Positions 4,766 to 54,215 of a stretch of 64,000 nucleotides of DNA are shown here, piece after piece; positions within the stretch are counted from its first letter, which is position 1; each line of letters opens with the position of its first letter. The notes below the pieces were generated by a model. It saw only the letters and a list, made by a program, of their open reading frames with translations, was not told the origin of the DNA and ran no database searches. Source of the DNA: an uncultured virus (IMG/VR IMGVR_UViG_3300044619_001509) (taxonomy: Duplodnaviria > Heunggongvirae > Uroviricota > Caudoviricetes); IMG/VR virus record IMGVR_UViG_3300044619_001509; one strand, given 5' to 3'. Both the position numbers and the translations under genes were made by a program.

Positions 4766-4780
4766 TGTAGAAATCAAGCC

Positions 4781-9142: not shown

Positions 9143-9211
9143 GGAATGATTATAGCACGACCGCCCCATACATCAAGCACTTCCGCAAAAGATTTATTTC
9201 TTTGAAATGTA

Positions 9212-9269: not shown

Positions 9270-9344
9270 CCTCCGATAACAAACGAGAACACCCCGCGTC
9301 CTGCGCGGGGTGGGTTTGGTGTGCGTGTTGGGTTCGGGGGTGAT

Positions 9345-9722
9345 TCAGAAACCGCTGCTCCACCCGATCATTCGGGTGAACTTCCCGCGTCCACCGAAGC
9401 GGCGCTGGAGGAACTTGCGGAGCGCGTTCCCCATCTGCGCGTCACACTTGAAGGTGACGGACGCGCTCCCCCCGTGAGCGAGGATGTCCGTACCGTCACA
9501 CCAACCCGAAGCGAAGAGCGCGTTGCTGTACTTCGCGGGGAGCGCATCCGCGAGACGCTTCAACTTATCCGCACCCGCGTTCGACGCGGTGAAGCGGTAG
9601 AAGTGCGCGGGACGGACGAAGGTGGGAGCGGTGTAGTTCGACGGGATGGGGAGCAGCATCTGCATGGTGGAATCTCCTGAGAAGAACCCAACACCCGCAA
9701 CGAGCGGGAAGGTGTTCTTCAT
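9345..9722 (-). CDS. Hypothetical early protein
   Basis: ORF with leaderless promoter. Confidence 0.75.
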   Translation of the reverse strand: MKNTFPLVAGVGFFSGDSTMQMLLPIPSNYTAPTFVRPAHFYRFTASNAGADKLKRLADALPAKYSNALFASGWCDGTDILAHGGSASVTFKCDAQMGNALRKFLQRRFGGRGKFTRMIGWSSGF

Positions 9723-9804
9723 GTACGAAGTATACCATACCCGTCTGTCACATCAATACCCTTGACGAAGAAAAGAAAATTTCTATTCTGGTCGGATTTC
9801 CTAT

Positions 9805-9851
9805 TCTCGCCAAAGGCCAGTCTGTTATAATAAAGATAGGCGGCGACAGCG
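9805..9851 (+). repeat. Promoter-core repeat, copy 11 (degenerate, core inverted)
   Basis: GGCCAGTCTGT-TATAAT-AAAGATAGG-CGGCGACAGCG; -35 box lost. Confidence 0.7.
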
Positions 9852-9959
9852 TTAATGTAAACCAATCAATATGTCAATGAAAGTTCTTTCAAAGAACTGT
9901 CAAGAATACACGCAAGTCTTAAATGTGAAAATAACAGTGCCAAATGAAAAAAATCTCTG

Positions 9960-10145
9960 GGGGCCCCACGAAACTAGACCCCACCCCCCTTTTTCTTTAA
10001 GTTTTTCTCTATGGGACTCCAAGATCATTCCAAGATCATTTTATGGGACTCCAAGTTTTCCCTCCAAGTTTTTTTCTAGAAATTTTAAGCCCCACCCCCC
10101 TTTTTCTGGCACGATTTCCTATGGGTTCCCCCCCTCCCTCTTTCT
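9960..10145. repeat. Non-coding junction with short direct repeats
   Basis: CCCCACCCCCCTTTTTCT x2, TATGGGACTCCAAG x2, CCAAGATCATT x2. Confidence 0.75.
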
Positions 10146-10186
10146 CTTGGTTGACACCCCCGAGAGATTCTGGTATACTGGCACAC

Positions 10187-10483
10187 ATGACTAACAATAA
10201 AGCCATTTACGAAGATGACATTCATGAATTAGACTCCTATAAATTCATCATTGTCAAAATTAACAAAAATAGTGAGCGGGCTTTTATACCGCTACTCTAC
10301 AATGCTTTGCCCAATAGAGTGAAAGTGTTTTCTTCCATTGAAGAAGCGAAGAAAACCATTGAAGGGGCTGCAATCGCTCTTGGTATTGACATTGAATGGA
10401 ATACTGAGTGTGATTCTTACATTTGTGAAACAACAGATTTAGTTGATGGAATTAAAATTGAGATTTGGAGGATCTGGATCTGA
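10187..10483 (+). CDS. Hypothetical protein (MTNNKAIY)
   Basis: TTGACA-17-TATACT promoter ends 7 nt before the ATG. Confidence 0.75.
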   Translation: MTNNKAIYEDDIHELDSYKFIIVKINKNSERAFIPLLYNALPNRVKVFSSIEEAKKTIEGAAIALGIDIEWNTECDSYICETTDLVDGIKIEIWRIWI

Positions 10484-10529
10484 TATGGAAACCCATAAAT
10501 CTCGTGGCTAAACAAAAAGGAAACAACCA

Positions 10530-10892
10530 ATGAGAATTAAGATTTTTTCTAGTTTTGAGGAATATAGCCGTCAATACAACTGGCATTTGTGGTATGCATG
10601 GCATCCCATTTTGATAGATGGTACTATTGTGTGGATGGAAAAAGTTTACCGCAAACGGTTAGCAACTACCACTAGACGGTGGTGTTATAAAATCGATGAA
10701 TACGACTCCAATGGAAATCTGATCCATTCCAAGGATAGTGATGGATTTGAGACTTGGCATGAATATGATGCCAATGGCAATCTGATCCATTACAAGAGCA
10801 GTGGTGGAGTTGAGTCTTGGTACGATTCATTCGGGAAGAAGATTGACAAGCTACAGTCAACTGGGGTAAAATACCACAATGACCAACACTAA
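10530..10892 (+). CDS. YD-like repeat protein with an N-terminal WxxWYAWHP domain
   Basis: EYDSNGNLIH...GFETW repeats. Confidence 0.8.
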   Translation: MRIKIFSSFEEYSRQYNWHLWYAWHPILIDGTIVWMEKVYRKRLATTTRRWCYKIDEYDSNGNLIHSKDSDGFETWHEYDANGNLIHYKSSGGVESWYDSFGKKIDKLQSTGVKYHNDQH

Positions 10893-11076
10893 CCCCATTT
10901 ACGAATACGATGCCAATGGCAATCAGATCCATTACAAGAGCATTGGTGGATTTGAGCGTTGGTGTGAATATGATGCCGATGGCAACTGTATCCATTACAA
11001 GGACAGTAAAGGAATTGAGAATTGGTTCGATTCTGAGGGAAATGTGATTGATAAGCCACAGTCAACTGGGGTATAA
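10879..11076 (+). CDS. YD-like repeat protein
   Basis: EYDANGNxIHYK repeats. Confidence 0.8.
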   Translation: MTNTNPIYEYDANGNQIHYKSIGGFERWCEYDADGNCIHYKDSKGIENWFDSEGNVIDKPQSTGV

Positions 11077-11083
11077 TAGCACA

Positions 11084-11407
11084 ATGAGCGACATCGAACC
11101 TATTAGTGAATATGACTCCAATGGCAATCTGATCTATTTAAAGCACAGTGATGGATATGAGTCATGGCGGGAATACGACTCAAATAACAATGAGATCCAT
11201 TTCAAGAATAGTGATGGATTTGAGTATTGGCAAGAATACGACTCCAATAATAATATAATCCATTACAAGCAGAGGAGTGATGAATATGAGTCTTGGCGTG
11301 AATACGACTCCAATAATAATGAAATCCATTACAAGAATAGTGATGGAGTTGAGGAATGGTACGACTCCCATGGCAATATGATTGACAATCCCACAAAGGA
11401 AGGGTAA
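11084..11407 (+). CDS. YD-like repeat protein (MSDIEPISEY)
   Basis: Four ~22-aa EYDSNNNxIHYK repeats. Confidence 0.85.
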   Translation: MSDIEPISEYDSNGNLIYLKHSDGYESWREYDSNNNEIHFKNSDGFEYWQEYDSNNNIIHYKQRSDEYESWREYDSNNNEIHYKNSDGVEEWYDSHGNMIDNPTKEG

Positions 11408-11416
11408 AATACTATA

Positions 11417-11776
11417 ATGACTGACGAAATTAAACCAAATCAAATGACCAAGAACGAATTCATGGCAAGTTATGGACACTGTGATGTTTCTTTGGAACGG
11501 ATTGAGGCTGACTCGTATAAAGTAGGTACTGTAAGAAGTGTGACGAAAACCTACATTATTATGAGTGGATATCTTGGTATGAAAAAAGAATTTCAGATTT
11601 ATGTAAAATTTTGCACGGCGTATAACATCGGGGTTCTTAAAAAGGGTATTTCTCCTTCTCATGTTTACAAGGTTCATCAATTTGACGCTGAATACATGGC
11701 GGTGAAGTCTGTGGAAACTGGAAAGATTGTGAATGAATGTTCTATTCAATTTGATATTTCAAAGTATACCCAATGA
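11417..11776 (+). CDS. Hypothetical protein
   Basis: ORF with a leaderless promoter embedded in the end of the previous gene. Confidence 0.7.
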   Translation: MTDEIKPNQMTKNEFMASYGHCDVSLERIEADSYKVGTVRSVTKTYIIMSGYLGMKKEFQIYVKFCTAYNIGVLKKGISPSHVYKVHQFDAEYMAVKSVETGKIVNECSIQFDISKYTQ

Positions 11777-12033
11777 GCAACATTGAAATGATTAGTCATT
11801 ACGATCCTAACGGTAATTTGATCTATTTAAATAATAACGGTTACGAGGCTTGGTATGAGTACGATACTGGCGGTAGATGTATTCACGCCAGATATTCAAA
11901 CGAATTTGAGACTTGGTACAAGTACGATGAAAATGGCAATTATGTTTACTACGAAGATTCCGAAGGAGTCAAAGTGTGGTACGATTCAAAGGGGAATGTA
12001 ATTGACTCCGTGGGGGCAACCGAGGTACAATAG
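11773..12033 (+). CDS. YD-like repeat protein
   Basis: YDxNGN repeats. Confidence 0.8.
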   Translation: MSNIEMISHYDPNGNLIYLNNNGYEAWYEYDTGGRCIHARYSNEFETWYKYDENGNYVYYEDSEGVKVWYDSKGNVIDSVGATEVQ

Positions 12034-12303
12034 CAACATGAGTAACAGTGAACCTATTAGTGAATACGACTCCAATGGCAATCTGATTCATTTCAGGAAT
12101 AGTACTGGATTTGAGACTTGGCGTGAATACGATGCCAATAACAATATGATCTATGCCAAGAACAGTACTGGATATGAGACTTGGCGCGAATACGATGCCA
12201 ATAACAATATGATCCATTACAAGGACAGTACTGAATATGAGGCGTGGTACGATTCAAAGGGGAATGTAATTGACTCCGTGGGGGCAACCGAGGTACAATA
12301 GCA
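11976..12303 (+). repeat. Identical 60-bp direct repeat (11976-12035 and 12244-12303)
   Basis: GTGGTACGATTCAAAGGGGAATGTAATTGACTCCGTGGGGGCAACCGAGGTACAATAGCA occurs twice. Confidence 0.9.
12038..12301 (+). CDS. YD-like repeat protein (MSNSEPISEY)
   Basis: EYDANNNMI repeats. Confidence 0.85.
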   Translation: MSNSEPISEYDSNGNLIHFRNSTGFETWREYDANNNMIYAKNSTGYETWREYDANNNMIHYKDSTEYEAWYDSKGNVIDSVGATEVQ

Positions 12304-12305
12304 CC

Positions 12306-12662
12306 ATGAGCAACACAACAACACATTACATCGTTCACTATAAATTTAGTAATACTTATTTGAGTACACCTATTGGTGTTTGTGATCGTTATAATTTGGT
12401 TTCATCCGAAGCAGAAGCAACACAATTCAATGATCTTGATCATGCAAAAAGACATATTAAGATATATTCAGAAATGCATTTACTCTGTGAAACCTACTTT
12501 GAGATTTTTGAAGTTACTGTTCAACGCACCTATAAGCAAGTCATTACAAAGCAAATGGCATTGAAATGCTTGGAAATTTTGGCTTGGGGAGGCGCGTATT
12601 CAGATCAAAAGCAAATTGATGCCAGAACTATGTTGAACACTTTCATCGAACAAAAGGGCTAA
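12306..12662 (+). CDS. Hypothetical protein (MSNTTTHY)
   Basis: ATG 6 nt below TACAAT. Confidence 0.7.
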   Translation: MSNTTTHYIVHYKFSNTYLSTPIGVCDRYNLVSSEAEATQFNDLDHAKRHIKIYSEMHLLCETYFEIFEVTVQRTYKQVITKQMALKCLEILAWGGAYSDQKQIDARTMLNTFIEQKG

Positions 12663-12670
12663 TACACAAT

Positions 12671-12859
12671 ATGAACAACAAACTCACAAACAATTTCGAT
12701 CAGGATACGGATGTTTTTGCAAAACTTTTCTCAAACTTTTTTAAGTTTGCTACTGCAATCGCTATCATTGGATCAATTTTTTTAATGACTCTGTTCGTAG
12801 CATTTTTTTGCGTAAGTTACACTCTCATACAGTATCTCAATCAGTATCTCAATAAGTAA
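12671..12859 (+). CDS. Small membrane protein
   Basis: Single hydrophobic segment. Confidence 0.65.
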   Translation: MNNKLTNNFDQDTDVFAKLFSNFFKFATAIAIIGSIFLMTLFVAFFCVSYTLIQYLNQYLNK

Positions 12860-12871
12860 AAGGAGAACAAT

Positions 12872-13237
12872 ATGACCAACACAAAATTCTATCATTTCAG
12901 GCAGAATAATAGTGGCGGATCTTTTGTTTTTGACAAAAATCTTGCTAGAGATGTGATTATTGAAGCAGAAACCGCAGATGAAGCAAATGATCTTGCCGAA
13001 GGTCTTGGCATCTATTTCGATGGGTGTGACCGAGGATGGGATTGTCGCTGTTGCGGTGATCGTTGGAATACTGTGAGTGATTCCTCTTGGTATATCATTG
13101 ATGATATCATTGATTACATGACTAATGAAAAGGCGCCATGGGTAGTTCATCGTTTGAATGGCACTGTCATGTCGGGTGGAAACCACAGGGGCAATATGCG
13201 TTACGATCATAATGATCCAAGTACATATAAGTATTAA
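12872..13237 (+). CDS. Conserved phage protein (QNNSGG...DCxCCGDRW family)
   Basis: Recognisable motif; AGGAG RBS. Confidence 0.8.
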   Translation: MTNTKFYHFRQNNSGGSFVFDKNLARDVIIEAETADEANDLAEGLGIYFDGCDRGWDCRCCGDRWNTVSDSSWYIIDDIIDYMTNEKAPWVVHRLNGTVMSGGNHRGNMRYDHNDPSTYKY

Positions 13238-13238
13238 T

Positions 13239-13535
13239 ATGCAACACAATAATATCTGGAAATTTAAGATTGACTTGAATGAAGTACGAGACGATGGTAG
13301 TGTCTATCTTACTCTTCCCGAAAATGCATCGGTCTTGACTGTACAACATCAAGAAGGATCAGGACTGTGCCTGTGGGCATTAGTGGACGATTCTACTCAA
13401 AACACAGAACGCCGTAGATTTTTTATCTACCTAACGGGTATTTCCTTTCATATGGGAAATAAGAATCTAAAGTATATCAACACTTGTCAGTTGTCTAATG
13501 GAACTCTTGTTCTTCATATCTTTGAAGAACTGTAA
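13239..13535 (+). CDS. Conserved phage protein (IWKF...LP...VLTVQ.Q...CLWA.VD family)
   Basis: Recognisable motif; start reassigned. Confidence 0.75.
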   Translation: MQHNNIWKFKIDLNEVRDDGSVYLTLPENASVLTVQHQEGSGLCLWALVDDSTQNTERRRFFIYLTGISFHMGNKNLKYINTCQLSNGTLVLHIFEEL

Positions 13536-13547
13536 AAGGAAAATAAT

Positions 13548-13772
13548 ATGAGCAATGATTCGAATAAAATAAACATCAACTTCGGTTCGTCTCTTTTTCT
13601 TGTTTTGGGAACGATTCTCCTAATTCTTAAACTGGCAGAAGTCATTCAATGGTCGTGGTGGATCGTTCTGATTCCATTCTACCCTTTGTTCTTGGTTCTT
13701 TTCGTTCTTATCATTTATTTCTTTATAGGAATGCTTATTGGACTTATGGAATTTTTCGATAGAAAGAAATAA
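13548..13772 (+). CDS. Small membrane protein (LKLxxVIxWSWW family)
   Basis: Two TM segments, conserved motif. Confidence 0.75.
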   Translation: MSNDSNKININFGSSLFLVLGTILLILKLAEVIQWSWWIVLIPFYPLFLVLFVLIIYFFIGMLIGLMEFFDRKK

Positions 13773-14138
13773 ATGTCAAAGTGGACAGAAAACGACTTTA
13801 ATGAGTTGATGAAAAAAGCTATCATTACTAATCTTGTTTTTGATTTTCATATAGCACGAAAAAGAATAATCTTAGGGCCAAATAAAGACTTAATACTAAG
13901 CGTACAAGCATCAGCTACACATTATTCTACACCAAGGAATAATAATGGCAAATTTTATGAGACATGGGAGATTGGTTTTCCTTCAAAGAAGGAAGATCTT
14001 TTGATGACATTTATTTACGATGGAGATGAAAATCCGACTCAAACGGTATATTCTAATGTGCCGACCAGTGTACTGATTGAATTAATTGAAAAGTACGATG
14101 GTATTTGTTACATAGAAAATTGTGGTCTTGATCTCTAA
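13773..14138 (+). CDS. Conserved phage protein (SVQAS..HYSTPR)
   Basis: Recognisable motif. Confidence 0.75.
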   Translation: MSKWTENDFNELMKKAIITNLVFDFHIARKRIILGPNKDLILSVQASATHYSTPRNNNGKFYETWEIGFPSKKEDLLMTFIYDGDENPTQTVYSNVPTSVLIELIEKYDGICYIENCGLDL

Positions 14139-14175
14139 TTATAAAATACTTTACTTTTTATGACTTCATTAATAA

Positions 14176-14183
14176 TATAAATA
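14176..14183 (+). promoter_or_regulatory. T4-type late promoter TATAAATA
   Basis: Exact consensus; further exact copies at 15670, 16940, 17661(-), 29289, 49413, 54215 and 61176. Confidence 0.8.
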
Positions 14184-14191
14184 ATGAGGTC

Positions 14192-14437
14192 ATGAACAAA
14201 TATACACAAATAATTCAACACTTAATAGAACAAAAGCAATCCGTCAAAAATTGGCAAGCGGGAGTTCGTTCTTCGCAACTAGCAGGAATACCCGATACCA
14301 AAAGATTGGCGGATGCTGATTTTTCGGCGGGTTACCAATTAGGTATGGAAAAAGGTGAAAAAGCACTAGATCCATCAAACCGCGCCAAAAGAGTAAAGAG
14401 ACTTCAAGATTTAATGAGAAAAAACAAAGAACAATAA
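14192..14437 (+). CDS. Late protein, candidate internal head protein
   Basis: Follows a late promoter; N-terminal ...HLIE motif. Confidence 0.7.
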   Translation: MNKYTQIIQHLIEQKQSVKNWQAGVRSSQLAGIPDTKRLADADFSAGYQLGMEKGEKALDPSNRAKRVKRLQDLMRKNKEQ

Positions 14438-14449
14438 AGGAAACTTATC

Positions 14450-14767
14450 ATGCACAATAACAGACTCTACGAACAAGCACAGTATCATATGCAAAGAGCA
14501 AACCTTCTTGAGAACGAACTCTCAGAAGAAAAAGCAGTAAACGACGAATTGATCAATATCATCGAAGCTCTCTGCAACGAACTGGGATTCACTTTCGAAG
14601 AACTCTTGGAAGGTTCATATGAAACTTCAGAAGAACAAAGAGAAAAAAGAGAAAAATCTGACGATCCCACAAGAACTCGCGCAGGCAGAAGCGAAATGAA
14701 CAAAGAAGATGCTCGTAAGGCTCGCGCTAAAGCTATGGCAGAAAAGATGAAAAAGAAGAAAAAGTGA
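14450..14767 (+). CDS. Late charged protein, candidate head core/internal protein
   Basis: RBS; LYE/LLE motifs; basic tail. Confidence 0.7.
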   Translation: MHNNRLYEQAQYHMQRANLLENELSEEKAVNDELINIIEALCNELGFTFEELLEGSYETSEEQREKREKSDDPTRTRAGRSEMNKEDARKARAKAMAEKMKKKKK

Positions 14768-14928
14768 AGACCTTTCGAAATCTCATCGAAAGTATTCGAA
14801 AAAGTGGCAGCGGCTTTGTTGTGACAAATAAGGCAGGAACAAAGGTATTAGGTAAGCACGAAAGTTACAAAAAAGCCAAAGCACAACTGGCTGCAATAGA
14901 GATCAGCAAAGCAAAACAAGGTAATTGA
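14764..14928 (+). CDS. 54-aa protein MKTFRNLIE..., T4 IP capsid-targeting-like N-terminus (not in the ORF track)
   Basis: GTG overlaps the previous stop; resembles the T4 MKTYQEFIAE signal. Confidence 0.65.
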   Translation: MKTFRNLIESIRKSGSGFVVTNKAGTKVLGKHESYKKAKAQLAAIEISKAKQGN

Positions 14929-15213
14929 CATATCTTTAACATTTGGATGACTAGATACTCATCCTATGAAAAAGATACTATCAAAATTACATAAATATTA
15001 TTACTTAACTCTTGATATTCTTCAAAGAGAATTAGTATAAAACATATCCACCGCGCCTCTTGGAAACAACGCGCATTTTGGGTGGATTTTTTATTTGGCA
15101 CAAAAACTTGACGCACCGCAACCTTGCGGTATAATGGTCGCATGAGACACAACGGTTCGATGCTCGGTTGGGGTCGAACAGCAAAAGAAAAAACTGTTTT
15201 TAAAGGAGGTTAT

Positions 15214-15612
15214 ATGTCTTTTGCAAAGAGTAATCTGTTAGGATTTGGTGATGGGCAAATGTTTGCTGATCGTGGTTTTCCGAAGTTCAATATTCTTATG
15301 CATGAGAAGGGTGATGTGACGATTGTTCAGTTTGCCCTTGCTGGTTACAAGAAAGAAGATCTAAAGATTGAACTGGAAAATGGTGTTCTTCATCTGAGTG
15401 GTCAGAATTCAAATATGAACAAGGACAAAACGGAAAATCTTAAGTTCCGCGAAATCCATAAGGGAATTGCGTCTAGAGTATTTAGCCAGTCTTGGGTTCT
15501 TCCGAAGCACGGCAAGATTTGTGATTGTGAGTTCCGAGATGGTATTCTCACGATTTGTATTGTGGTTGAGGTTCCCGATGAACTGAAGCCAAAGACGATT
15601 CCGATCAACTAA
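15214..15612 (+). CDS. hsp20: Hsp20 small heat shock protein
   Basis: FPKFNI, ALAGYKKEDLKIE, HKGIASR.F, DGILTI, PDELKPKTIPI; GGAGG RBS. Confidence 0.92.
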   Translation: MSFAKSNLLGFGDGQMFADRGFPKFNILMHEKGDVTIVQFALAGYKKEDLKIELENGVLHLSGQNSNMNKDKTENLKFREIHKGIASRVFSQSWVLPKHGKICDCEFRDGILTICIVVEVPDELKPKTIPIN

Positions 15613-15635
15613 AGATCAAATTGGTAAATTTCTCA

Positions 15636-15670
15636 AAGAGGGTTGGTGTAAAACCAACCCTTTCTTTTTT
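15636..15670 (+). terminator. Intrinsic terminator
   Basis: AGGGTTGGT/ACCAACCCT stem followed by a T-run. Confidence 0.8.
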
Positions 15671-15698
15671 ATAAATATTTTATATTAAGGAACTTTTT

Positions 15699-16847
15699 AT
15701 GCAATTATCATTTACACAGTATCTAACCGAACAGTATGCAATGGATCGTTATCTTTCTTTTCTACTTGAAGCGAATCTTTCATTGGATGTTGTAAAACCC
15801 GATACAGCAAATTGGGGAAAGATTAAAGCAGGATTTGATAAAGTAAAGGATCCCAATCAAAGAAAAGCAATTGCTAAAGAAGCGCGCAAAAAAAGAAAAA
15901 CAAAACTTCTTGGGGCAGAGGGTAGCAACCCAAAAATTGCAAAAGAAAGTGAAAGTGTTCCTGAATATGCAACAAAAGGACTTTCTCTTTCACCGTCCGA
16001 TGAATCTGGAAGAATTAATACTTGTGCTTGTGCCACAGATGAATGTCGTGCAGCCTGTTTAAATAAAGCAGGACGCGGTGCAATGACGAGTGTTCAAAAA
16101 GCAAGATTAAATAAAACCGATCATATGATTGACAATCCTGATCATTTTATGGGTGGATTACATGATGAAATTGACGCACACGAAAAATCGGCGACCAAAA
16201 AAGGTAAAAAGGCTGCTGTTCGATTGAATGTTGTTTCTGATGTTCCTTATGAAGGACTTCATCCTGAGATTTTCCATCAGCATCCAAATGTTAAATTTTA
16301 TGATTACACAAAGATAGCAGGAAGAGTATTAAAACCCGATGGTTCAAAACGAGAACTTCCTTCGAATTACCATCTTACTCTATCTTCTACTGGTATTCAT
16401 AAACAAAGCAACTGGAAACATGTAAGACAACATTTAGATAATGGTGGGGTTTCGGCAATGGTATTTGCTGTTCCTGCCAGTCGTAAAGGTAAACAAGGAG
16501 GAGATCTTCCTACTCATGTTCACGACGAAAAAACAGGAAAGAGATATCGCGTAATTGATGGTGACATTCACGATCACCGACACTTGGATCATATCTATAA
16601 CGATGCTGCGCCTGGTGAAGGATTGATTGCGGGTTTGCGTATCAAGGGTGGAAAGAAAATGTTAGAAAAGGCAGGAGACTTTGCTGTTAAAGTTCCTGCT
16701 GGCCAATCTCATGTTTCTGTGCCAGATATTCACGATGAACCAAAGGCCAATAAAGAAGAACCTCCAAAGGCCAAACTAGGTGAATCGGTTAATGTTAAGT
16801 TCAAAAAGATGCTTTCTATGCAAAAATCTTGCAAGAAAAGGGCTTGA
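15699..16847 (+). CDS. GP88-family (radical-SAM-like) protein
   Basis: CACATDECRAAC cysteine cluster, VRLNVVSD, FYDYTK, NYHLTLS, DGD..D.R..D. Confidence 0.75.
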   Translation: MQLSFTQYLTEQYAMDRYLSFLLEANLSLDVVKPDTANWGKIKAGFDKVKDPNQRKAIAKEARKKRKTKLLGAEGSNPKIAKESESVPEYATKGLSLSPSDESGRINTCACATDECRAACLNKAGRGAMTSVQKARLNKTDHMIDNPDHFMGGLHDEIDAHEKSATKKGKKAAVRLNVVSDVPYEGLHPEIFHQHPNVKFYDYTKIAGRVLKPDGSKRELPSNYHLTLSSTGIHKQSNWKHVRQHLDNGGVSAMVFAVPASRKGKQGGDLPTHVHDEKTGKRYRVIDGDIHDHRHLDHIYNDAAPGEGLIAGLRIKGGKKMLEKAGDFAVKVPAGQSHVSVPDIHDEPKANKEEPPKAKLGESVNVKFKKMLSMQKSCKKRA

Positions 16848-19643: not shown

Positions 19644-19716
19644 GCCCTTATAGCTCAGTTGGTAGAGCAGCAGCCTTTTAAGCCGACGGTCGTAGGTTCG
19701 ATCCCTACTGGGGGCA
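19644..19716 (+). tRNA. tRNA-Lys(TTT), anticodon stem with two mismatches
   Basis: Cloverleaf; GCAGC-CTTTTAA-GCCGA. Confidence 0.85.
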
Positions 19717-19792
19717 CTTCAATTGTAGAAACAGTAATTAGATGATGAATTATTGTTTCTTGTCTTGTATACATCATCTGAGGATTTTTGCT

Positions 19793-20767: not shown

Positions 20768-20854
20768 GGACAGATGGCAGAGCGGTTGAATGCTGCTGTT
20801 TACTAAACAGCCATGGCCTAAAAACCATCGGGGGTTCGAATCCCTCTCTGTCCG
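20768..20854 (+). tRNA. tRNA-Ser(ACT)
   Basis: GCTGT-TTACTAA-ACAGC; long variable arm; G73. Confidence 0.9.
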
Positions 20855-20867
20855 CTACATAATAAGA

Positions 20868-21866: not shown

Positions 21867-21939
21867 GCACTCGGGGGGTCGAGGAGGCCCAGGTTCGCTT
21901 ATAACGAACTGGTTGTAGGTTCGAATCCTATCGGGTGTA
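21867..21939 (+). tRNA. tRNA-Ile(TAT), atypical D-arm
   Basis: GCACTCG/CGGGTGT acceptor stem; GTTCG-CTTATAA-CGAAC; TTCGAAT T-loop; own sigma70 promoter at 21831-21858. Confidence 0.8.
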
Positions 21940-21943
21940 CTTT

Positions 21944-22584: not shown

Positions 22585-22779
22585 ATGCCAAAACGCGTAC
22601 TTGATAAGTTTGATATTGAAGCGGAGCGTGAAGGTTTCTTTGTTGCAAAACACAATGCAACTATATGCAAACCATTCGGACAAGGTAAAATAATCTTGCG
22701 ACAGCGAAAGATGCACAAAGACGGCGACAAGCGTATTGAGTGTAAAACGATCAAGCAATCCTATACAAGAGCATTCTAA
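22585..22779 (+). CDS. Small basic hypothetical protein
   Basis: ORF coupled to the next gene. Confidence 0.65.
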   Translation: MPKRVLDKFDIEAEREGFFVAKHNATICKPFGQGKIILRQRKMHKDGDKRIECKTIKQSYTRAF

Positions 22780-22994
22780 TGAAACGCATTTGTGATACTT
22801 GCTCGGAAGAAATTCCGCAAGCAAGGCTAGAGGCTATTCCCGAAACTACAACTTGTGTAAAGTGTTCAAGAGAAGAAAAGCGTGTCGGTTTTATGGATTG
22901 GTATCATAAGACTGCACCCGAACTTGTTATGGTTTCTACCGATAACAAGGAAAATCTTCGTCGCGCACAACGAGTAAATGCGAGATCACGATGA
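22779..22994 (+). CDS. TraR/DksA C4-type zinc finger protein
   Basis: CDTC-EEIP-ARLEAIP----CVKC. Confidence 0.85.
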   Translation: MKRICDTCSEEIPQARLEAIPETTTCVKCSREEKRVGFMDWYHKTAPELVMVSTDNKENLRRAQRVNARSR

Positions 22995-23530
22995 GCAGAA
23001 ATGTCATTGATCCCTTCAAGTATTGGACAACCGAAGCAATCAAAGCCAACTTGGACACCAAGCGGCATAATTACACGGTGATTGCAAGTAATCTTGAGAA
23101 CGATTTTAACATTGCAACCCTGATTCGCAACTCAAATGCCTTTCTTGCAAAGGAAGTTTGGATCTATGGGAACAAGCAATATGATCGTCGTGGCACGGTC
23201 GGAACTCATCACTACACAAATTTCAAGCATGTCAAGACGATTGATAATGTTATTGAAGAACTGAAGAATCTTCGCAATGAATATATTGATTTGAAGATTG
23301 TAGGAATGGACAATGTTCCAGGCTCAATCAACATCAATCATTATTCGTGGCCTAAGTTTGCTCATACTGTTATGATTTTTGGTCAGGAGCAGAATGGCAT
23401 TCCACAGGAACTTCTTGACTTGTGTGACGATGTCGTGTATATTGAGCAGTACGGAAGCGTTCGTAGTCTCAATGTAGGAACTGCGAGTGGAATCGCAATG
23501 TATGATTATTGTAATAAGGTGTTGAACTAA
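22991..23530 (+). CDS. trmH: SpoU/TrmH-family RNA 2'-O-methyltransferase
   Basis: NIATLIRN, IFGQEQNGI, SLNVGTASGIAMY SPOUT motifs. Confidence 0.85.
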   Translation: MSRNVIDPFKYWTTEAIKANLDTKRHNYTVIASNLENDFNIATLIRNSNAFLAKEVWIYGNKQYDRRGTVGTHHYTNFKHVKTIDNVIEELKNLRNEYIDLKIVGMDNVPGSININHYSWPKFAHTVMIFGQEQNGIPQELLDLCDDVVYIEQYGSVRSLNVGTASGIAMYDYCNKVLN

Positions 23531-24305: not shown

Positions 24306-25043
24306 ATGGATGTAACATATTCTTATAAAAACAAAATGAGTGATGCGGCAAATAAACTCATTAATAATATTATTTTCAGTGTTTCACCAACGCCAAAGTG
24401 GGCATATTGTGCGGGTGGTGCTTTAGACACGAAAGTTTTTCCTATTAATGATTCAGATTTGACTAAAAAGATCATGGTTCCGCTTTCTTTGGCTTACGAT
24501 GAACCTGATTATTATCTTTCTGATAATAAAGATACTCTAATGAAAGTAGAGTATTATGAGTGTTATTTACAACAGATTTGTAGGCTTGTACATCATACAA
24601 TCAGAGATAGCATTTATCTTTATGATGTCACCTTTATAGATAGTAGTTTTTTGTTATATTCTGATATTCAACGAATTCCATCTAAAAATCCACAGATCTA
24701 CGAGATGTGTTGGTATGGTCGTGAGATCTATAAGATAGTTCAAAGAGTTAATACAAACGATAACTTTGCAGAGAACATACCACAAGAAAGCATCAAGACT
24801 GTGGAACCAAAACCAAGTAAAACAGAATCAAATAATGTGTGTGGGTATTCTTACTTTGTGGATCATCTTTCTGCTTTGAGTATTCAAAAGGACTACAACA
24901 AAGAGAAAAATAGAATGGTTCGTTTGAATGTTAGGGAAAATACGGATCATAATTCTATACAGAGCGTTACCATTTCCGACAAAGAAACCTTGAAGGATAT
25001 TATCATGAGACTAATAGAAATGGAAAGTTGGATGGGGGAATGA
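24306..25043 (+). CDS. Hypothetical protein
   Basis: Long ORF in operon. Confidence 0.7.
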   Translation: MDVTYSYKNKMSDAANKLINNIIFSVSPTPKWAYCAGGALDTKVFPINDSDLTKKIMVPLSLAYDEPDYYLSDNKDTLMKVEYYECYLQQICRLVHHTIRDSIYLYDVTFIDSSFLLYSDIQRIPSKNPQIYEMCWYGREIYKIVQRVNTNDNFAENIPQESIKTVEPKPSKTESNNVCGYSYFVDHLSALSIQKDYNKEKNRMVRLNVRENTDHNSIQSVTISDKETLKDIIMRLIEMESWMGE

Positions 25044-25402
25044 AAGTATTATTTGTTGATGATGATTGCAACAGGTGGAATAGATTCAAACAAAACAATC
25101 CAACCATAGATGCAGAACGAGTAAAATTTGTAGAAGATGCTACAAATATTTTAAGCAAACAAAAGTTTGATATTCTATGCTTGGATCACGATATGGACGA
25201 TCCTCCGTTTCGTTTATGGTTGCCCAACGGAACCGACCTTGCAAAATACATTGTTGAGAATAAAATAGAATGTAAGATGATATTTCTTCATAGTATGAAC
25301 GACGAGGGAAGAGCAAGAATGCTTGACATCCTCACCAAGGCAGGATATAATGTCGTAGATAATCCCCTATTGTGGGAGAAAGACATTAAACAATGGATGT
25401 AA
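25040..25402 (+). CDS. Cyclic-phosphate-processing receiver (cREC) domain protein
   Basis: LFVDDD..R, CLDHDM, GxD, IFLHSMN..G motifs. Confidence 0.8.
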   Translation: MKVLFVDDDCNRWNRFKQNNPTIDAERVKFVEDATNILSKQKFDILCLDHDMDDPPFRLWLPNGTDLAKYIVENKIECKMIFLHSMNDEGRARMLDILTKAGYNVVDNPLLWEKDIKQWM

Positions 25403-31140: not shown

Positions 31141-31758
31141 ATGACTGCACCAGGCACAAAACCCCCACCGAACAGAAATGTTTTCATCGTGAGTGATACT
31201 CACTTTGGGCATCCTAATATTGTAAAGTTTACTGCCAACGGAGAAAAACTTCGTCCGTTTGAAAACTTTCAAGATCATGATGAGGCATTGGTTGCAAACT
31301 GGAATTCTGTGGTAAAACCTTACGATAAAGTTTATCATCTTGGTGATGTGTGTATGGGCAAAAAGTCTTTGTCTATTCTTGAAAGATTGAATGGTAAGAA
31401 AGTTCTTATTCGTGGTAATCACGATATTTTTGATCTGAAGGAATACTCTAAATACTTTTACGATATTCGTTCTTGTCATGTTTTGAATGGTTGTTTGTTT
31501 ACACATATTCCTGTTCATGCGTCTTGTCTCGAAAAGTTTGGATGCAATGTTCATGGACATACTCATGCAAATCATGTAAAGAAAATTTCTGATATCGGTG
31601 GATTGGAAAAGGATCCATCATATCTAAATGTGTGTGTTGAACATACAAATTATACTCCAATACTTCTTGATGAAGTTTTTGATCGAATCACAAAGCAAGG
31701 TGGAACGGTCGGATTTACTAAACGAAGATTGGAAGATGATTTGTGGATGGGTCTATAG
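31141..31758 (+). CDS. Calcineurin-like metallophosphoesterase
   Basis: SDTHFGH, HLGD, RGNHD, NVHGHTH. Confidence 0.92.
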   Translation: MTAPGTKPPPNRNVFIVSDTHFGHPNIVKFTANGEKLRPFENFQDHDEALVANWNSVVKPYDKVYHLGDVCMGKKSLSILERLNGKKVLIRGNHDIFDLKEYSKYFYDIRSCHVLNGCLFTHIPVHASCLEKFGCNVHGHTHANHVKKISDIGGLEKDPSYLNVCVEHTNYTPILLDEVFDRITKQGGTVGFTKRRLEDDLWMGL

Positions 31759-31903: not shown

Positions 31904-32218
31904 ATGCCGATTGAGTATGAAATGAAACATCTTTTTGATGTCACCAAGAATGCAATTTTAAAATATTCTGAAAACCATTATGCTGCTGAATGGTATATTG
32001 GTATTGAGTATATTGTACTTCGTGATGTTCTAAATAATAATGAAACATTACTCAATGAAATTTTTAAACCATATGAATTGATTGTGATGCGAGAATTGAT
32101 TCATAGAGGATTGTGGTTGAAATGGTGTGACAAGACAAATCAAGTTGTTTTATCTAGAGATCCAATTCACAAAAATCTTTCTGATGATACAAAACCAATT
32201 CCGCAGGGAGCAGATTAA
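31904..32218 (+). CDS. Hypothetical protein (YSE..YAAEW..GIEY)
   Basis: ORF after a tRNA; start reassigned. Confidence 0.7.
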   Translation: MPIEYEMKHLFDVTKNAILKYSENHYAAEWYIGIEYIVLRDVLNNNETLLNEIFKPYELIVMRELIHRGLWLKWCDKTNQVVLSRDPIHKNLSDDTKPIPQGAD

Positions 32219-32652
32219 TGAATAAAATTGTTTTGGTTACGGGTGGGTTTGATCCGATCCATAGCGGCCACATTGCTTATCTAAAAGAAGCAAAAAAACT
32301 AGGAGATATGCTTGTAGTTGGAGTTAACTCTGATGAATGGTTAATTCGTAAGAAAGGAAAGTTTTTCTTACCCTATCACGAAAGACGCACCATCATTCAA
32401 AACATTAAGGGTGTGGATGCTGTTATTGGTTTTAATGATGATGATGAAACGGCAAAGGATGCTATAGTCAAGGTTCGTGAATTTAATCCCTATAGCGAAA
32501 TTATTTTTGCCAATGGTGGAGATCGCACCAAAGAAAATATTCCTGAAATGGATATCGTGGATGATAATCTTTCTTTTGTTTTTGGTGTTGGTGGTGAACA
32601 TAAAATGAATTCTTCAAGTTGGATTTTGAGTAATTGGGAAAATACTAAATAA
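32218..32652 (+). CDS. Cytidylyltransferase (TagD/RfaE-like HxGH nucleotidyltransferase)
   Basis: TGGFDPIHSGH, VGVNSD, FANGGDR. Confidence 0.92.
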   Translation: MNKIVLVTGGFDPIHSGHIAYLKEAKKLGDMLVVGVNSDEWLIRKKGKFFLPYHERRTIIQNIKGVDAVIGFNDDDETAKDAIVKVREFNPYSEIIFANGGDRTKENIPEMDIVDDNLSFVFGVGGEHKMNSSSWILSNWENTK

Positions 32653-32654
32653 TA

Positions 32655-32920
32655 ATTGATATCGTTGATCTTTGCATACTACCTAGTTACACGGGGGTTC
32701 GATACCCCCCGACTCCATTCAAAACTTTTGGGGTCGAAATGGAGTCGATAATTAGATGTTCGCAATAGGGAGATATCCGAGAGGTCGTTAACAACCCTCG
32801 TTAAATCCCAATGTTGACGCCTATAAATGCCAACACAATGGCAATGGCTGCTTAAAGCAGTGGGGATTGGTCATCCCGCATCTGAATTGACCCAAACCCC
32901 CATTTGGGGGTTTGTTTTTT
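32655..32920 (+). ncRNA. ssrA: Circularly permuted (two-piece) tmRNA, tag (A)ANTMAMAA
   Basis: T-arm and CGACTCC-A 3' end (32693-32717) precede the GGGGTCG 5' end (32730); 7-bp acceptor stem with G3:U70; pseudoknot; ATAAAT-GCC resume motif; tag ORF 32829-32855; terminator 32894-32920. Confidence 0.9.
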
Positions 32921-32952
32921 GATAAATACTTAATGTTTAAAAAGGAGCATTT

Positions 32953-33390
32953 ATGTTTTCTATTGAATTACTAAGCATGTTGGGTGGTGGATTAGTTGGA
33001 TTTTTGTTCCGCTATTTAGCCCAAAGAAGTGCAGATCAGAAAGAGTTATTTACTCGCTTGATCGAATCGAACAAATTAACAACAGAAAATCAAGACAGAG
33101 CTGTACAAAGAGTTCCTATTGACACAGGAAGAACAGTTCGTCAGATTATTGTTCTTACTGTTTTATTTGGTGCATTTGCTGCTCCTTTTATTCTTCCATT
33201 TTTTGGTGTTCCTACCTTCATAGAAGTTGATATCAAAGATCCCGAAGGATTATTTGGTTTGCTTCCCGAAACCACAAAGAAAGCATTCGTCCAATTAAAT
33301 GGATTTTTTTGGGCTTCAGAGAATAGACAAATATTGTTAAGTATTGTTGGATTTTATTTTGGATCAGCAGCGGCAACAAACAAATCATAA
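32953..33390 (+). CDS. Multi-TM late membrane protein (holin-like candidate)
   Basis: GATAAATA promoter; 2-3 TM segments; C-terminal IVGFYFGS as in 3TM holins. Confidence 0.6.
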   Translation: MFSIELLSMLGGGLVGFLFRYLAQRSADQKELFTRLIESNKLTTENQDRAVQRVPIDTGRTVRQIIVLTVLFGAFAAPFILPFFGVPTFIEVDIKDPEGLFGLLPETTKKAFVQLNGFFWASENRQILLSIVGFYFGSAAATNKS

Positions 33391-33398
33391 GGACTCAT

Positions 33399-33731
33399 AT
33401 GAAAAAAATATTACTTTTAGTTGCACTCTTTGGTATTTTTGGTGTATTGGCGTCTTGCAGAACAACTCCGTTTCCTGTTATTATTCCCGATACCACAACC
33501 GATAATGTTGTAATACAGGGATATAAAGATCAAATTGCAGAACCAGGTCCTGCACAACAATCCTACAGTTGGTTGTTTTGGTATGCTCCGATATGCATTA
33601 TATCGATCATGTGGGCATGGAGAGAATTGATTCGTAAACCAGTACCAAAACAATGTATTGATTCGTCGGGACAGATTGTCAAAGAACAAACCGAACCAAT
33701 CAAAAAACAACCAAAAAAGAAAAAGGGATAA
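33399..33731 (+). CDS. Lipoprotein with a second TM segment (u-spanin-like topology)
   Basis: LASC lipobox; WLFWYAPICIISIMWAW TM; basic tail. Confidence 0.6.
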   Translation: MKKILLLVALFGIFGVLASCRTTPFPVIIPDTTTDNVVIQGYKDQIAEPGPAQQSYSWLFWYAPICIISIMWAWRELIRKPVPKQCIDSSGQIVKEQTEPIKKQPKKKKG

Positions 33732-48450: not shown

Positions 48451-49215
48451 ATGATACCGTATGACGAATATATCTGGGGTGATAAATTTAAAGTTTGTTT
48501 TTCTAATATAGAAAATATAAGTTTTTCTAATTTTCCAGATGGAAATTATATAAGAAAAACATTATCAAAAGATGCAAAAATTATTATTTCTCACAATGGA
48601 GACGAACCAGTTACATGTGATTTGATAAACGAGTATCCTAATTGTAAGTATTGGTTTGGTCAAAATATTATGTGTGAAAATAATAAAGCAATACCTCTTC
48701 CTATTGGATTGGAAAATGATTATATTACTGGTCAACCAGAAAGAAAGTACATTTTACAACAAAAATCTAATTTGAATATTGTTCCTACTAGATTAGCATA
48801 TCTTAATTGTAGCGTAAGTACACATAGACAAGATAGACAGCCTGCATTTGATTATTTTTCTAGACAAAATTGGTGTGATGTGAGAGTTCCTTATGGAAAT
48901 TATTATGGATTTTGTGATGATATTTTGAATCATCATTTTTCCATATCACCAAGAGGAAATGGATTAGATTGTCATAGGAGTTGGGAAATTTTATATTTAG
49001 GTCGATATCCTGTAATGAAAAAATATTATGGATTACAAAAATTATTCGAAGATTTGCCAGTAGTTTTTGTTGATGATTGGACACAGGTTAGTGAAGAATT
49101 TTTAAACAAAGAACTTGAAAAGATACAAAGAACTTCCTATAATTATGATAAACTCAAATTTAGTTATTGGAAAAATTTAATAGAAAACACATATAATGAT
49201 AATAGAAACAAATGA
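48451..49215 (+). CDS. Exostosin/GT47-like glycosyltransferase
   Basis: PLPIGLEN, FSISPRGNGLDCHRSWE.LYLG. Confidence 0.75.
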   Translation: MIPYDEYIWGDKFKVCFSNIENISFSNFPDGNYIRKTLSKDAKIIISHNGDEPVTCDLINEYPNCKYWFGQNIMCENNKAIPLPIGLENDYITGQPERKYILQQKSNLNIVPTRLAYLNCSVSTHRQDRQPAFDYFSRQNWCDVRVPYGNYYGFCDDILNHHFSISPRGNGLDCHRSWEILYLGRYPVMKKYYGLQKLFEDLPVVFVDDWTQVSEEFLNKELEKIQRTSYNYDKLKFSYWKNLIENTYNDNRNK

Positions 49216-49417
49216 AGTGAACATAAATCAAGAAATAGAAAAAATAGTATCACAAAACAAGGACGGATATATTCAAGCAATTCTCACTTTCTGTGAAGAA
49301 AAAAATATAGATCCATCCTATATTGCAAAATTTATATCTAAACCAATAATAGAAAAAATACGAGCAGAGGGAGAATCAATAAATCTTCTTCAAAAATCTG
49401 CTCGTCTTCCGTTATAA
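49196..49417 (+). CDS. gp33: Late promoter transcription coactivator gp33
   Basis: YIQAIL.FCEE.NID...AKFISKPI.EKI..E...N; adjacent to gp32. Confidence 0.85.
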   Translation: MIIETNEVNINQEIEKIVSQNKDGYIQAILTFCEEKNIDPSYIAKFISKPIIEKIRAEGESINLLQKSARLPL

Positions 49418-53229: not shown

Positions 53230-53775
53230 TTAATTTCTAACTGTTCTTGTTTCTGCCGAAAAGAACGAAAATCCGACTGTTTGTTTTATATTTTCGTTAT
53301 TTGATGCCCAATTGTATTGAATATCATTAATCACCGATGGAAAGCAATTTCTGAATACAAATTCTTGTACGGGATTGCCTTGCAGATCAAGAGGACGAAC
53401 GAGAATGGTTCCGACATATTCGTTGTAGTACGAAAACCCTCTTCCTGGTCTATGCACCAAACTTTGCCAGACTAACATTGCATTTCTTTCTCTATAATCT
53501 GAAGACAATTTAAAGGTTAAAGTTACAGTATTTCCGTAATTTAACTGATATGGCATAGGAATGACGGGTAAACCATTAATTTTTGCTTCAAATGTTAAAA
53601 GACTTTGACTTGGAATATCAACAGACTCACAGGTCAAAGAAAACTGTCGAAGAAGAGCGGCACTACTTAAAGAAACAGGACTACCTGGCGGTGGAATAAC
53701 CAAAACTTCAAACCTGTTTGGTTTGGCAATACCTGTTCCAAATAAATTTGAGTAAAATTGATTTAAGTTTGCCAT
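53230..53775 (-). CDS. Tail tube initiator (gp54/gp19-like)
   Basis: G.AKPNRF.V, CESV..P, FP..I..I.Y. Confidence 0.75.
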   Translation of the reverse strand: MANLNQFYSNLFGTGIAKPNRFEVLVIPPPGSPVSLSSAALLRQFSLTCESVDIPSQSLLTFEAKINGLPVIPMPYQLNYGNTVTLTFKLSSDYRERNAMLVWQSLVHRPGRGFSYYNEYVGTILVRPLDLQGNPVQEFVFRNCFPSVINDIQYNWASNNENIKQTVGFSFFSAETRTVRN

Positions 53776-54215
53776 TAGAGTTTGAGTGTCTTTTCTGTTA
53801 GGATTTTAAATTCCCAGTTTTGCTGTGCTGCAAATTTTTTTGCCGCTTCCCATTTTTTATTATTTATGTCCCATTGTTTCATTTCGGTGAGATATGTTTT
53901 GTTGCTTTTCTTACCTCTTTTGGGTTCCTTGCATTGTTTTTCTGGTTTGACTTCGATTAGATAAGTTTTGATGTTATTGTTCTTATCTCGTACTTTAATG
54001 ATAAAATCGGGATAGTAACGATGATAATCATTATCAACTGGTGAAATGTAGGGAATTGAAATTTCTTCGCTTGCCCACCGAATCACACTTGGATTGGTAT
54101 CGCAGAAAACCATGAATTTTCGTTCCCACAATGACCTATAAATAATGTTAGACACATCTCCTGCGTACTTGCTCGGATTCTCGGGATTGAATTTGCCTTT
54201 ATAGGATGCACCCAT
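53775..54215 (-). CDS. gp4: Head completion nuclease gp4
   Basis: YKGKF.P.NP.KY.GD, YRSLWE, W.SEE..IPY.SP, HRYYPDF, IEVKP. Confidence 0.95.
   Translation of the reverse strand: MGASYKGKFNPENPSKYAGDVSNIIYRSLWERKFMVFCDTNPSVIRWASEEISIPYISPVDNDYHRYYPDFIIKVRDKNNNIKTYLIEVKPEKQCKEPKRGKKSNKTYLTEMKQWDINNKKWEAAKKFAAQQNWEFKILTEKTLKL

Follow-up and report, generated by a model that had tools for sequence, protein, structure and literature searches.

Near the middle of an uncultured phage sequence, at the end of an array of tRNA genes, lies a short gene with its two tRNA halves in permuted order, and the question that it raises is whether it encodes a working two-piece transfer-messenger RNA (tmRNA) and, if so, to which lineage that RNA belongs. 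The gene is carried by a stretch of 64,000 nucleotides (nt) from an uncultured virus of the Caudoviricetes (IMG/VR record IMGVR_UViG_3300044619_001509), which was analysed at its full length and is referred to here as the window. A preliminary description made from the sequence alone had proposed a phage-encoded, circularly permuted tmRNA with a minimal 8-codon tag, perhaps an independent permutation and a clue to the host. Two-piece tmRNAs of cellular origin are known from the Alphaproteobacteria, from a betaproteobacterial lineage and from some cyanobacteria. Here we find that the locus is a genuine phage two-piece tmRNA gene of a known class and with canonical architecture; the best explanation overall, which we consider very probable, is a working-type two-piece ssrA gene of an uncultured lake-water T4-like myovirus.

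ARAGORN called one permuted tmRNA in the window (32628-32946, plus strand; tag ANTMAMAA). Its verbose output, which carries the label 'Permuted', assigns 32682-32717 to the 3' tRNA domain, 32730-32756 to the 5' tRNA domain and 32829-32855 to the tag, so that the 3' (acceptor) tRNA half stands ahead of the 5' tRNA half and the coding part. RF04321 (tmRNA_permuted), the merged Rfam model for permuted tmRNA, matched 32658-32855 over its entire length (positions 1-213 of 213) with 74.3 bits (gathering score 47; E = 2e-12, computed for the whole window). The window contains the combined T-arm and acceptor pattern a single time, 100 shuffles yielded no copy of it, and the fold of the 263-nt precursor is unusually stable (z = -4.12, with none of 200 shuffles reaching the same stability). 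What was observed directly is the order of the parts (acceptor piece, then spacer, then coding piece), every helix, the conservation of the tag frame, the terminator and the setting among phage genes. The core of the preliminary description, a circularly permuted tmRNA that is encoded by a phage and has a tag of 8 codons, is thereby borne out by the ARAGORN label, the RF04321 score and the neighbouring phage genes, and every element that it listed was found where it had been placed, including the boundaries at 32717 and 32730 (sequence and ARAGORN domains). Of the two database checks that it proposed, ARAGORN returned a permuted tmRNA at the locus; the Rfam search gave a divided result, with the merged model passed and the alpha, beta and cyano models all below their gathering scores. 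The elements of the gene and its flanking signals are as follows.

32645..32651, plus strand: late-promoter-like CTAAATA of T4 type, ending 6 nt before the first paired base (32658)
32658..32717, plus strand: acceptor piece, with three P2 strands, the T-arm, the acceptor 3' strand and the discriminator A32717; CCA is not encoded
32658-62, 32672-75 and 32683-89, plus strand: P2 strands within the acceptor piece
32693-32709, plus strand: T-arm GGGGG/UUCGAUA/CCCCC, read from the sequence
32710-16, plus strand: acceptor 3' strand CGACUCC, followed by the discriminator A at 32717
32718..32729, plus strand: 12-nt spacer, presumably excised in maturation (limits from the ARAGORN domains)
32730..32777, plus strand: 5' part of the coding piece (ARAGORN domain, invariant columns in the 17 sequences described below, pair counts)
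32730-36, plus strand: acceptor 5' strand GGGGUCG, which carries G3
32737-48, plus strand: conserved single-stranded stretch, counterpart of the D-loop region
32749-55, 32762-65 and 32773-77, plus strand: P2 return strands
32683-89 with 32749-55, plus strand: P2 inner helix, CUAGUUA with UAAUUAG
32778..32819, plus strand: pseudoknot 1 (PK1), stem 1 32778-85/32794-800 (A32782 bulged), stem 2 32786-93/32812-19
32829..32855, plus strand: tag frame GCC AAC ACA ATG GCA ATG GCT GCT TAA, that is, ANTMAMAA and a stop (ARAGORN)
32829 and 32853-55, plus strand: resume codon GCC, preceded by UAUAAAU, and stop codon TAA
32848-51 with 32857-60, plus strand: 4-base-pair hairpin with the stop codon in its loop
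32862..32892, plus strand: pseudoknot 2 (PK2), 3' of the tag, stem 1 GGG 32862-64/CCC 32875-77, stem 2 GGUCA 32869-73/UGACC 32888-92
32893..32920, plus strand: intrinsic terminator, 9-base-pair stem 32893-32914 (6 G-C), 4-nt loop and TTTTTT (terminator scan and minimum free energy fold)

The acceptor stem formed by the two pieces comprises 7 base pairs (GGGGUCG/CGACUCC), the third of which is a G:U that corresponds in the sequence to the alanine identity pair G3:U70, and the terminator marks the 3' end of the precursor.

A pattern scan of IMG/VR returned at least 120 loci, in 50 of which ARAGORN called a tmRNA (33 permuted, at least one of them, L085, doubtful, and 17 standard). Among the matches listed, 12 of the 33 permuted tmRNAs group with the window RNA as a family. 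Further scans brought in nearer relatives, namely the IMG/VR loci L121-L123, which come from phages with 57% G+C (L121 shares a contig with L035), nine metagenome loci and one scaffold from a genome collection (L124). Among the relatives listed, the nearest has 72% identity to the window RNA, and altogether the family spans phages of 37% to 57% G+C. It comes in two forms, one with an inter-piece spacer of 11-13 nt, which is that of the window, and one with a structured spacer of ~70-100 nt, found in ten more distant relatives (L022, L028, L034, L054, L073, L080, L091, L096, L110 and L111). The long spacer holds a hairpin with a covarying stem, the CUGC loop of which can pair with a downstream GCAG; in L111 both loop and partner are altered, to CUGU and ACAG, which points to a pseudoknot in the long spacer. 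No Rfam family matched this spacer in the four relatives searched (L022, L028, L034 and L111).

The helices of the window RNA were mapped onto an alignment of 17 sequences (7 short-spacer and 10 long-spacer relatives, drawn from viral contigs and metagenomes) and the pairs were counted. In this alignment 85.2% of the cells are paired, compared with 37-47% when the partners are slid by 1-3 columns, and 32 of the 63 pairs show changes on both sides (6-12 in the slid controls); the covariation exceeds all 500 shuffles on four of five measures and lies above every slid control. Pairing is complete (100% of cells) in outer P2, the T-arm and the acceptor stem and reaches 81% in inner P2. Both pseudoknots are backed by changes on both sides of their pairs. 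In PK1, 90% of the cells of stem 1 are paired, with both-side changes in 3 of 7 pairs, and stem 2, which shows such changes in 6 of 8 pairs, holds in the short-spacer relatives. In PK2, stem 1 is nearly invariant (98% paired), and in the 7 short-spacer relatives stem 2 is paired in 91% of cells with both-side changes in 3 of 5 pairs; the cyano_tmRNA model aligns the identical GGUCA loop and UGACC stretch of this pseudoknot. The terminator hairpin of the short-spacer relatives is paired in 70% of cells, with both-side changes in 5 of 8 pairs. The stop-codon hairpin is unchanged in all 17 sequences and therefore yields no covariation evidence. The preliminary description had considered pseudoknots 2 to 4 to be largely absent, which is not supported: a second pseudoknot lies 3' of the tag at 32862-32892, and its stem 2 covaries in the 3 of 5 pairs mentioned above. 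Two-piece tmRNAs usually have PK1 upstream of the tag and, in the typical case, a single pseudoknot downstream of it (PMC3985003), and the window RNA is therefore not unusually reduced.

The tag frame is equally constrained. From the aligned resume codon, exactly 8 codons and a stop follow in 17 of 17 sequences, in a pattern x-x-x-[M/L]-[A/R]-[M/L/I/R]-A-A that ends in an invariant Ala-Ala; the codons vary synonymously at tag positions 1, 2, 3, 4, 5 and 8, and the stop is either TAA or TGA. The family tags include ANELAMAA, ANEMAMAA, ANQLAMAA, AAPMAMAA, AANMRMAA and AEELAIAA, and two that ARAGORN called ANIKAAPMRMAA read AAPMRMAA from the aligned resume codon. As far as sequence comparison can tell, this pattern is the signature of a translated frame under selection. 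To call such a tag minimal, as had been done, goes too far, as tags of merely two residues appear in a recent compilation (PMC11915505). A full-text literature search found no paper pairing 'MAMAA' with 'tmRNA'.

We then considered how the gene might be expressed and with which partners its product might act. The late-type motif noted upstream in the preliminary description is well founded: [C/A]TAAATA ends 5-6 nt before the start of P2 in 11 of 19 family loci (some are near-identical, and not all are independent), and in three other family loci a called tRNA ends 10-11 nt upstream of the RNA. In the window, ATAAATA stands 13-31 nt before at least 10 gene starts, including those of baseplate genes, CTAAATA also occurs 17 nt before the tRNA-Leu gene at 30940, and a gp33-type late-transcription coactivator is encoded at 49196-49417. 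Because of the placement of the motif and the gp33 homologue, a putative T4-type late promoter is the best reading of the upstream motif. A further ATAAATA, at 32922-32928, directly follows the tmRNA terminator, 31 nt before the next gene (32953). No match to the SmpB family (PF01668) was detected among the 101 open reading frames (ORFs) of the window (54 + 47), nor was one found on four related viral contigs (33-76% complete). Since no SmpB was found and the gene itself lacks the CCA, the host would, from what is known of tmRNA biology, have to supply SmpB, RNase P, 3' trimming, CCA addition and alanyl-tRNA synthetase (AlaRS).

These features suggest the following course of events. The late promoter motif at 32645-51 would most likely drive the transcription of a precursor of ~263 nt (32658-32920); host RNase P would cut before G32730, the acceptor piece would be trimmed to A32717, and the host CCA-adding enzyme would supply the CCA, as it is not encoded. 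The two resulting RNAs (~63 nt and ~165-190 nt) would remain paired via the acceptor stem and P2, and host AlaRS would load alanine through G3:U70. Together with host SmpB, the RNA would then enter stalled ribosomes, where translation would resume at the GCC at 32829 and append A-ANTMAMAA. In this manner ribosomes would be freed during infection, and the truncated peptides would probably be marked for host proteases.

The genomic surroundings are those of a T4-like phage. The window encodes T4-type gp32, gp5, gp6, gp25 and gp53, other baseplate proteins and Hsp20, and its gp32 shares 51-53% identity with the gp32 proteins of Pelagibacter phage Mosig and Synechococcus phages. ARAGORN found 26 tRNA genes in the window, and the tmRNA ends an array of 25 of them (19.6-31.9 kb). 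At least half of the sampled words from 32200-33700 recur in 12 sequencing runs labelled lake-water metagenome or metagenome, none of them registered as RNA; three of the runs may be the source of the window, and the other nine, which come from 8 studies, carry no mark to that effect. The window DNA is real. Searches by blastn with the RNA, with the 12 kb around it and with the RNA of a relative against 50,697 phage records returned nothing beyond 27-36 nt of the T-arm. The strict family pattern matched only one of 185,579 species genomes, on a 9.5-kb scaffold (L124) placed in a metagenome-assembled genome (MAG) labelled Bacteroidota. This scaffold has the gene order of the window (a SpoU methylase 62% identical to that of the window, tRNAs, a phosphoesterase 70% identical, and a tmRNA with the tag AAPMAMAA) and is therefore almost certainly a phage fragment binned into the MAG. 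In the scans made here, the family appears on phage DNA only.

How widely related phages carry the RNA was assessed from the gene just downstream of it (32953-33390; 145 amino acids; phrog_38283, function unassigned), which has 312 relatives in IMG/VR. We surveyed the best 80 of the 312; in 77 of the 80 the upstream sequence extends over 400 nt or more. Of these 77 syntenic loci, 5 have a tmRNA in the flank according to ARAGORN, in each case permuted and with an 8-codon tag, and a one-piece tmRNA was called at the syntenic site in none of them; the family profile finds the RNA in 6 of the 80. The downstream gene and the ORF after it (to 33731) are syntenic in L123, where the two ORFs are 57% and 29% identical to those of the window.

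Several observations weigh against a working rescue RNA of the kind outlined above. Most related phages have no copy of the gene next to the conserved downstream gene, and it is therefore dispensable, that is, accessory. The middle segment of P2 (32672-75/32762-65) is weak, with 65% of its cells paired, and stem 2 of PK1 is only 57% paired overall because the 10 long-spacer relatives use another register; as drawn, PK1 also has no linker nucleotides between its stems, and its terminal pairs may consequently not form. A weak sigma-70-like site (TTGAGT, 16 nt, AATAAT; 32626-32653) overlaps the late motif, and the timing of expression is uncertain in view of this overlap; the site itself is no better than chance (1 found, 2.6 expected). 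The SmpB search in this phage covered the window, and the phage may encode SmpB elsewhere in its genome. Finally, transcription, the two cuts, charging and tagging are all steps that we infer.

With these points in mind, other roles for the same RNA have to be considered. It might be a decoy, with a tRNA-like domain that soaks up host SmpB, EF-Tu or AlaRS and so blocks host trans-translation; a tag-less tmRNA-like RNA of mycobacteriophage DS6A has been described as such a decoy (PMC11915505), the tRNA-like domain is the most conserved part of the window family, as judged from invariant columns, and no phage SmpB was found in the window ORFs or in the four related viral contigs. However, the tag frame, the resume context, the stop-codon hairpin and both pseudoknots, which are conserved with synonymous or compensatory changes, would be superfluous for a pure decoy, and we regard this role as very improbable. 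It is also conceivable, albeit improbable, that the RNA rescues ribosomes with a tag that is no degradation signal, in which case the products would skip host tmRNA-tag proteolysis or meet another fate. The tag is indeed shorter than its comparators (19 codons in S-CRM01, 9 in Mosig and 9 in the Bacteroidota group discussed below), its N-terminal part differs, and it varies at position 5 (Ala/Arg) and position 6 (Met/Leu/Ile/Arg); yet the Ala-Ala end is invariant in 17 of 17 sequences, and the AMAA end matches 25 of 29 cellular tags of one Bacteroidota group, as a host-matched degron would. The absence from most related phages, together with the fact that phages integrating into ssrA can carry ssrA fragments (PMC9004378), would fit a functionless, decaying passenger, either a copy of host ssrA or the remnant of an attachment site. 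We find this hardly credible: the gene is complete and is kept across phages of 37% to 57% G+C at ~72% identity and with compensatory changes, there is no sign here that most relatives have a frameshift in the tag or disrupted helices, no integrase family matched among the 101 window ORFs (Pfam), and the strict pattern occurs in just the one species genome, on a phage-like scaffold. A working-type two-piece tmRNA thus accounts best for the locus.

Two-piece tmRNAs have already been reported from phages. The preliminary description had taken phage tmRNAs to be mostly one-piece and the present one to be unusual on that account, a view that does not agree with the 53 unique two-piece forms recorded from isolate phages, T4-like phages included, in PMC9004378. 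In that study, Buchholz et al. (2022) described a two-piece ssrA in the OM43 phage Melnitz and found a tmRNA in 402 of 18,146 phage genomes, with 133 unique forms, of which 53 are two-piece and 50 of these marine or aquatic; the permuted forms in its Table S1 include those of S-CRM01, S-CAM1, S-CAM3, S-SSM7, HTVC008M, Mosig, and Caulobacter and crAss-like phages. A 2025 tmRNA database paper gives 79 unique phage tmRNAs, with tags down to two residues (PMC11915505). The closest parallels are the aquatic T4-like phages with permuted ssrA, namely Methylophilales phage Melnitz, Pelagibacter phages Mosig and HTVC008M, and Synechococcus phages S-CRM01, S-CAM1, S-CAM3 and S-SSM7 (PMC9004378). Like the window phage they are aquatic and T4-like and carry a permuted ssrA near tRNA genes, with no phage SmpB found, and the gene is accessory in both settings (17 of 47 Melnitz-like contigs in PMC9004378, 5 of 77 loci here). 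In S-CRM01 the tmRNA directly follows tRNAs, as in the window.

The differences are equally clear. The S-CRM01 RNA scores 74.3 with the cyano model (cut-off 70) and has a 19-codon tag, and the Mosig RNA scores 67.6 with the alpha model (cut-off 50) and has the tag GEDNFALAA, whereas the window RNA stays below the lineage cut-offs; the tags of both phages are host-like, whereas that of the window family has a fixed length of 8 codons. CCA is not encoded in the window RNA, whereas the alpha-type Mosig RNA reads CUCCACCA. A glutamine riboswitch is not present in the window according to Rfam, since only tRNAs and RF04321 are listed. With the cellular two-piece tmRNAs (RF01849, RF01850 and RF01851) the window RNA shares gene order, tRNA-like domain, long P2, the PK1-tag-PK2 arrangement and a stop codon in a hairpin loop, but unlike them it falls under each lineage cut-off.

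To place the RNA among the lineages, it was compared with the alpha (RF01849), beta (RF01850) and cyano (RF01851) models, which have gathering scores of 50, 84 and 70. At gathering score only RF04321 is listed for the locus, without an alpha, beta or cyano match, and at relaxed thresholds the best lineage model for the window RNA is cyano, with 52.8 bits against 70. For its relatives the best model is beta, with 34-58 bits against 84, while plain cyano-type and plain beta-type viral tmRNAs score 74-174 and 90-107 bits, respectively. Sequence profiles were scored as well: the profile of beta-type viral tmRNAs, made of 3 sequences only, gave 49 bits over ~180 nt of the window RNA, compared with 10 bits for the cyano-type profile (14 sequences) and ~5 bits for a profile of Bacteroidota one-piece tmRNAs (29 sequences). 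Aligned directly, the window RNA resembles the beta type mostly within the tRNA-like domain, and nhmmer found no match between the window RNA and the Mosig RNA. A cyanobacterial origin was dropped, because it is the beta model that gives the relatives their highest scores and the cyano-type profile reaches no more than ~10 bits. We have accordingly filed the RNA as a two-piece tmRNA in none of the three lineages, with the beta type apparently the nearest.

That no alpha, beta or cyano cut-off is reached also suits an alternative to descent from one of the three lineages of cellular two-piece tmRNAs, namely that a one-piece tmRNA, such as one from a Bacteroidota host or phage, was permuted independently within a phage lineage. 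Apart from a single phage-like scaffold, the searches of cellular genomes did not turn up the family, and the tmRNAs of the candidate host group are one-piece. Cellulophaga phage phi14:2 has a one-piece tmRNA as well, with a T-arm and acceptor sequence identical to that of the window RNA. This shared sequence of the tRNA-like domain is short, however, and could be convergent, and no one-piece form occurs at the syntenic site in the 77 loci, where an independent origin, already raised in the preliminary description, left no sign; by profile the beta-type two-piece tmRNAs are the nearest (49 bits for the 3-sequence profile, compared with 10 for cyano and ~5 for Bacteroidota one-piece). On balance we think that such an independent permutation is rather unlikely. 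One one-piece RNA with a similar tag came up in the IMG/VR scan (L030/L138; 50,849 bases; RF00023 132.9 bits; tag ATPMAMAA; phage of ~50% G+C). It was rejected as an ancestor, as its phage has no protein similarity to the window over 14.5 kb; because the two phages are unrelated, the shared AMAA end suggests convergence on a host degron, not common descent.

The permuted form itself had been proposed as a clue to the host, an expectation that could not be upheld, as the lineage models disagree and none reaches its cut-off. The sole host lead, and it is a lead only, is the ending of the tag. The MAG that contains L124 has a one-piece tmRNA of its own, with the tag GESNYAMAA. In its Bacteroidota group, 35 of 41 genomes have a tmRNA match; 30 loci were examined, 29 tags were called, and 25 of the 29 end in AMAA, while a permuted tmRNA is present in one of the 41 genomes, on the phage-like scaffold only. 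Among the IMG/VR matches listed, AMAA endings are found in 8 of 12 family members, in none of 21 other permuted tmRNAs and in 1 of 17 one-piece tmRNAs, and the window tag has this ending too. The one-piece tmRNA of phi14:2, a phage with a Bacteroidota host, has the acceptor stem and T-arm of the window's subfamily. Other likenesses to the Bacteroidota one-piece group (tags G[ED]xN[FY]AMAA), besides the AMAA end common to it and the window family, are the T-arm ACGGGGGUUCGAnnCCCCCC, which the nearest genomes of the group have in common with the window RNA, and a similar G+C content (29-50% and 37-38%). The group differs in its one-piece gene, additional pseudoknots, another acceptor stem, a 9-codon tag and the ~5 bits that its profile scores on the window RNA. 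The common bin of scaffold and MAG is weak evidence of a host. Taken together, a Bacteroidota host is suggestive only, with the specificity of AMAA compared with 38 other viral tmRNAs only. Joined into one picture, these strands would describe a fourth, virus-restricted two-piece tmRNA lineage that is accessory in abundant freshwater T4-like phages of Bacteroidota with one-piece tmRNA, its fixed 8-codon tag converged on the AMAA degron of the host, and thus a streamlined rescue RNA that is not host-derived and possibly a separate permutation; as a whole, we judge this picture tentative and unlikely to hold in full.

Other parts of the window were also noted. Amid the tRNAs lie genes that resemble RNA-upkeep functions, a DksA/TraR zinc finger (22779-22994), a SpoU-type RNA methylase (22991-23530), a cyclic-phosphate-processing receiver domain (25028-25402) and a metallophosphoesterase (31141-31758); together with the 25 tRNAs and the tmRNA, they look like a translation-maintenance island. 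There are two tRNA-Lys(UUU) genes, one alone in the high-GC part (631-705, minus strand) and one at 19644-19717 (plus strand), and ARAGORN calls a tRNA-Ser with anticodon ACT (20768-20855) and a tRNA-Ile with anticodon TAT (21867-21940). Between 36774 and 48442, at a G+C of 26-33%, glycosyltransferase, FkbM-type methyltransferase and sugar epimerase genes form a run that resembles an island for sugar modification. Between baseplate genes (53775-54215, minus strand) lies the gene of a protein whose N-terminal domain is that of a TnsA-like endonuclease. The composition changes abruptly from 52-62% G+C up to ~9.6 kb to 33-42% beyond, and just right of this break short ORFs match RHS repeats (10530-12301, plus strand). 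To its left the contig depth is ~2x that of the right side in three runs, and rearranged forms are present; contigs cross 9.65 kb, yet among those listed none joins 10092 to 10287 (stretch 4000-16000). In 1-10300, 2 of 21 ORFs have a Pfam match (WYL_2 and a sub-threshold TMF_TATA_bd), none of 6 has a PHROGs match, and the TAAATA motif does not occur. This part of the window may be a mis-join or a variable island.

With phage two-piece tmRNAs already published, the window RNA is an addition to a known kind of molecule and no invention of its own. Its novelty is modest and lies in a family seen here on phage DNA only, with a fixed 8-codon tag, that reaches none of the three lineage cut-offs, and possibly in the mismatch of a two-piece RNA in the phage with a one-piece RNA in the host. 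It adds a well-supported, divergent family to the phage-borne two-piece tmRNAs, one that RF04321 and ARAGORN detect and the three older lineage models miss, which matters for annotation. It also indicates that the permuted form is by itself no host indicator, as the three lineage models disagree and the last four residues of the tag point elsewhere. If the Bacteroidota lead is true, the family would clearly illustrate how a phage adapts a borrowed rescue RNA to its host at the degron end only. With a tag of constant 8-codon length and a constant distance between the late-promoter motif and the first base of the RNA, the gene offers a compact, testable model of late ribosome-rescue investment by lytic phages.

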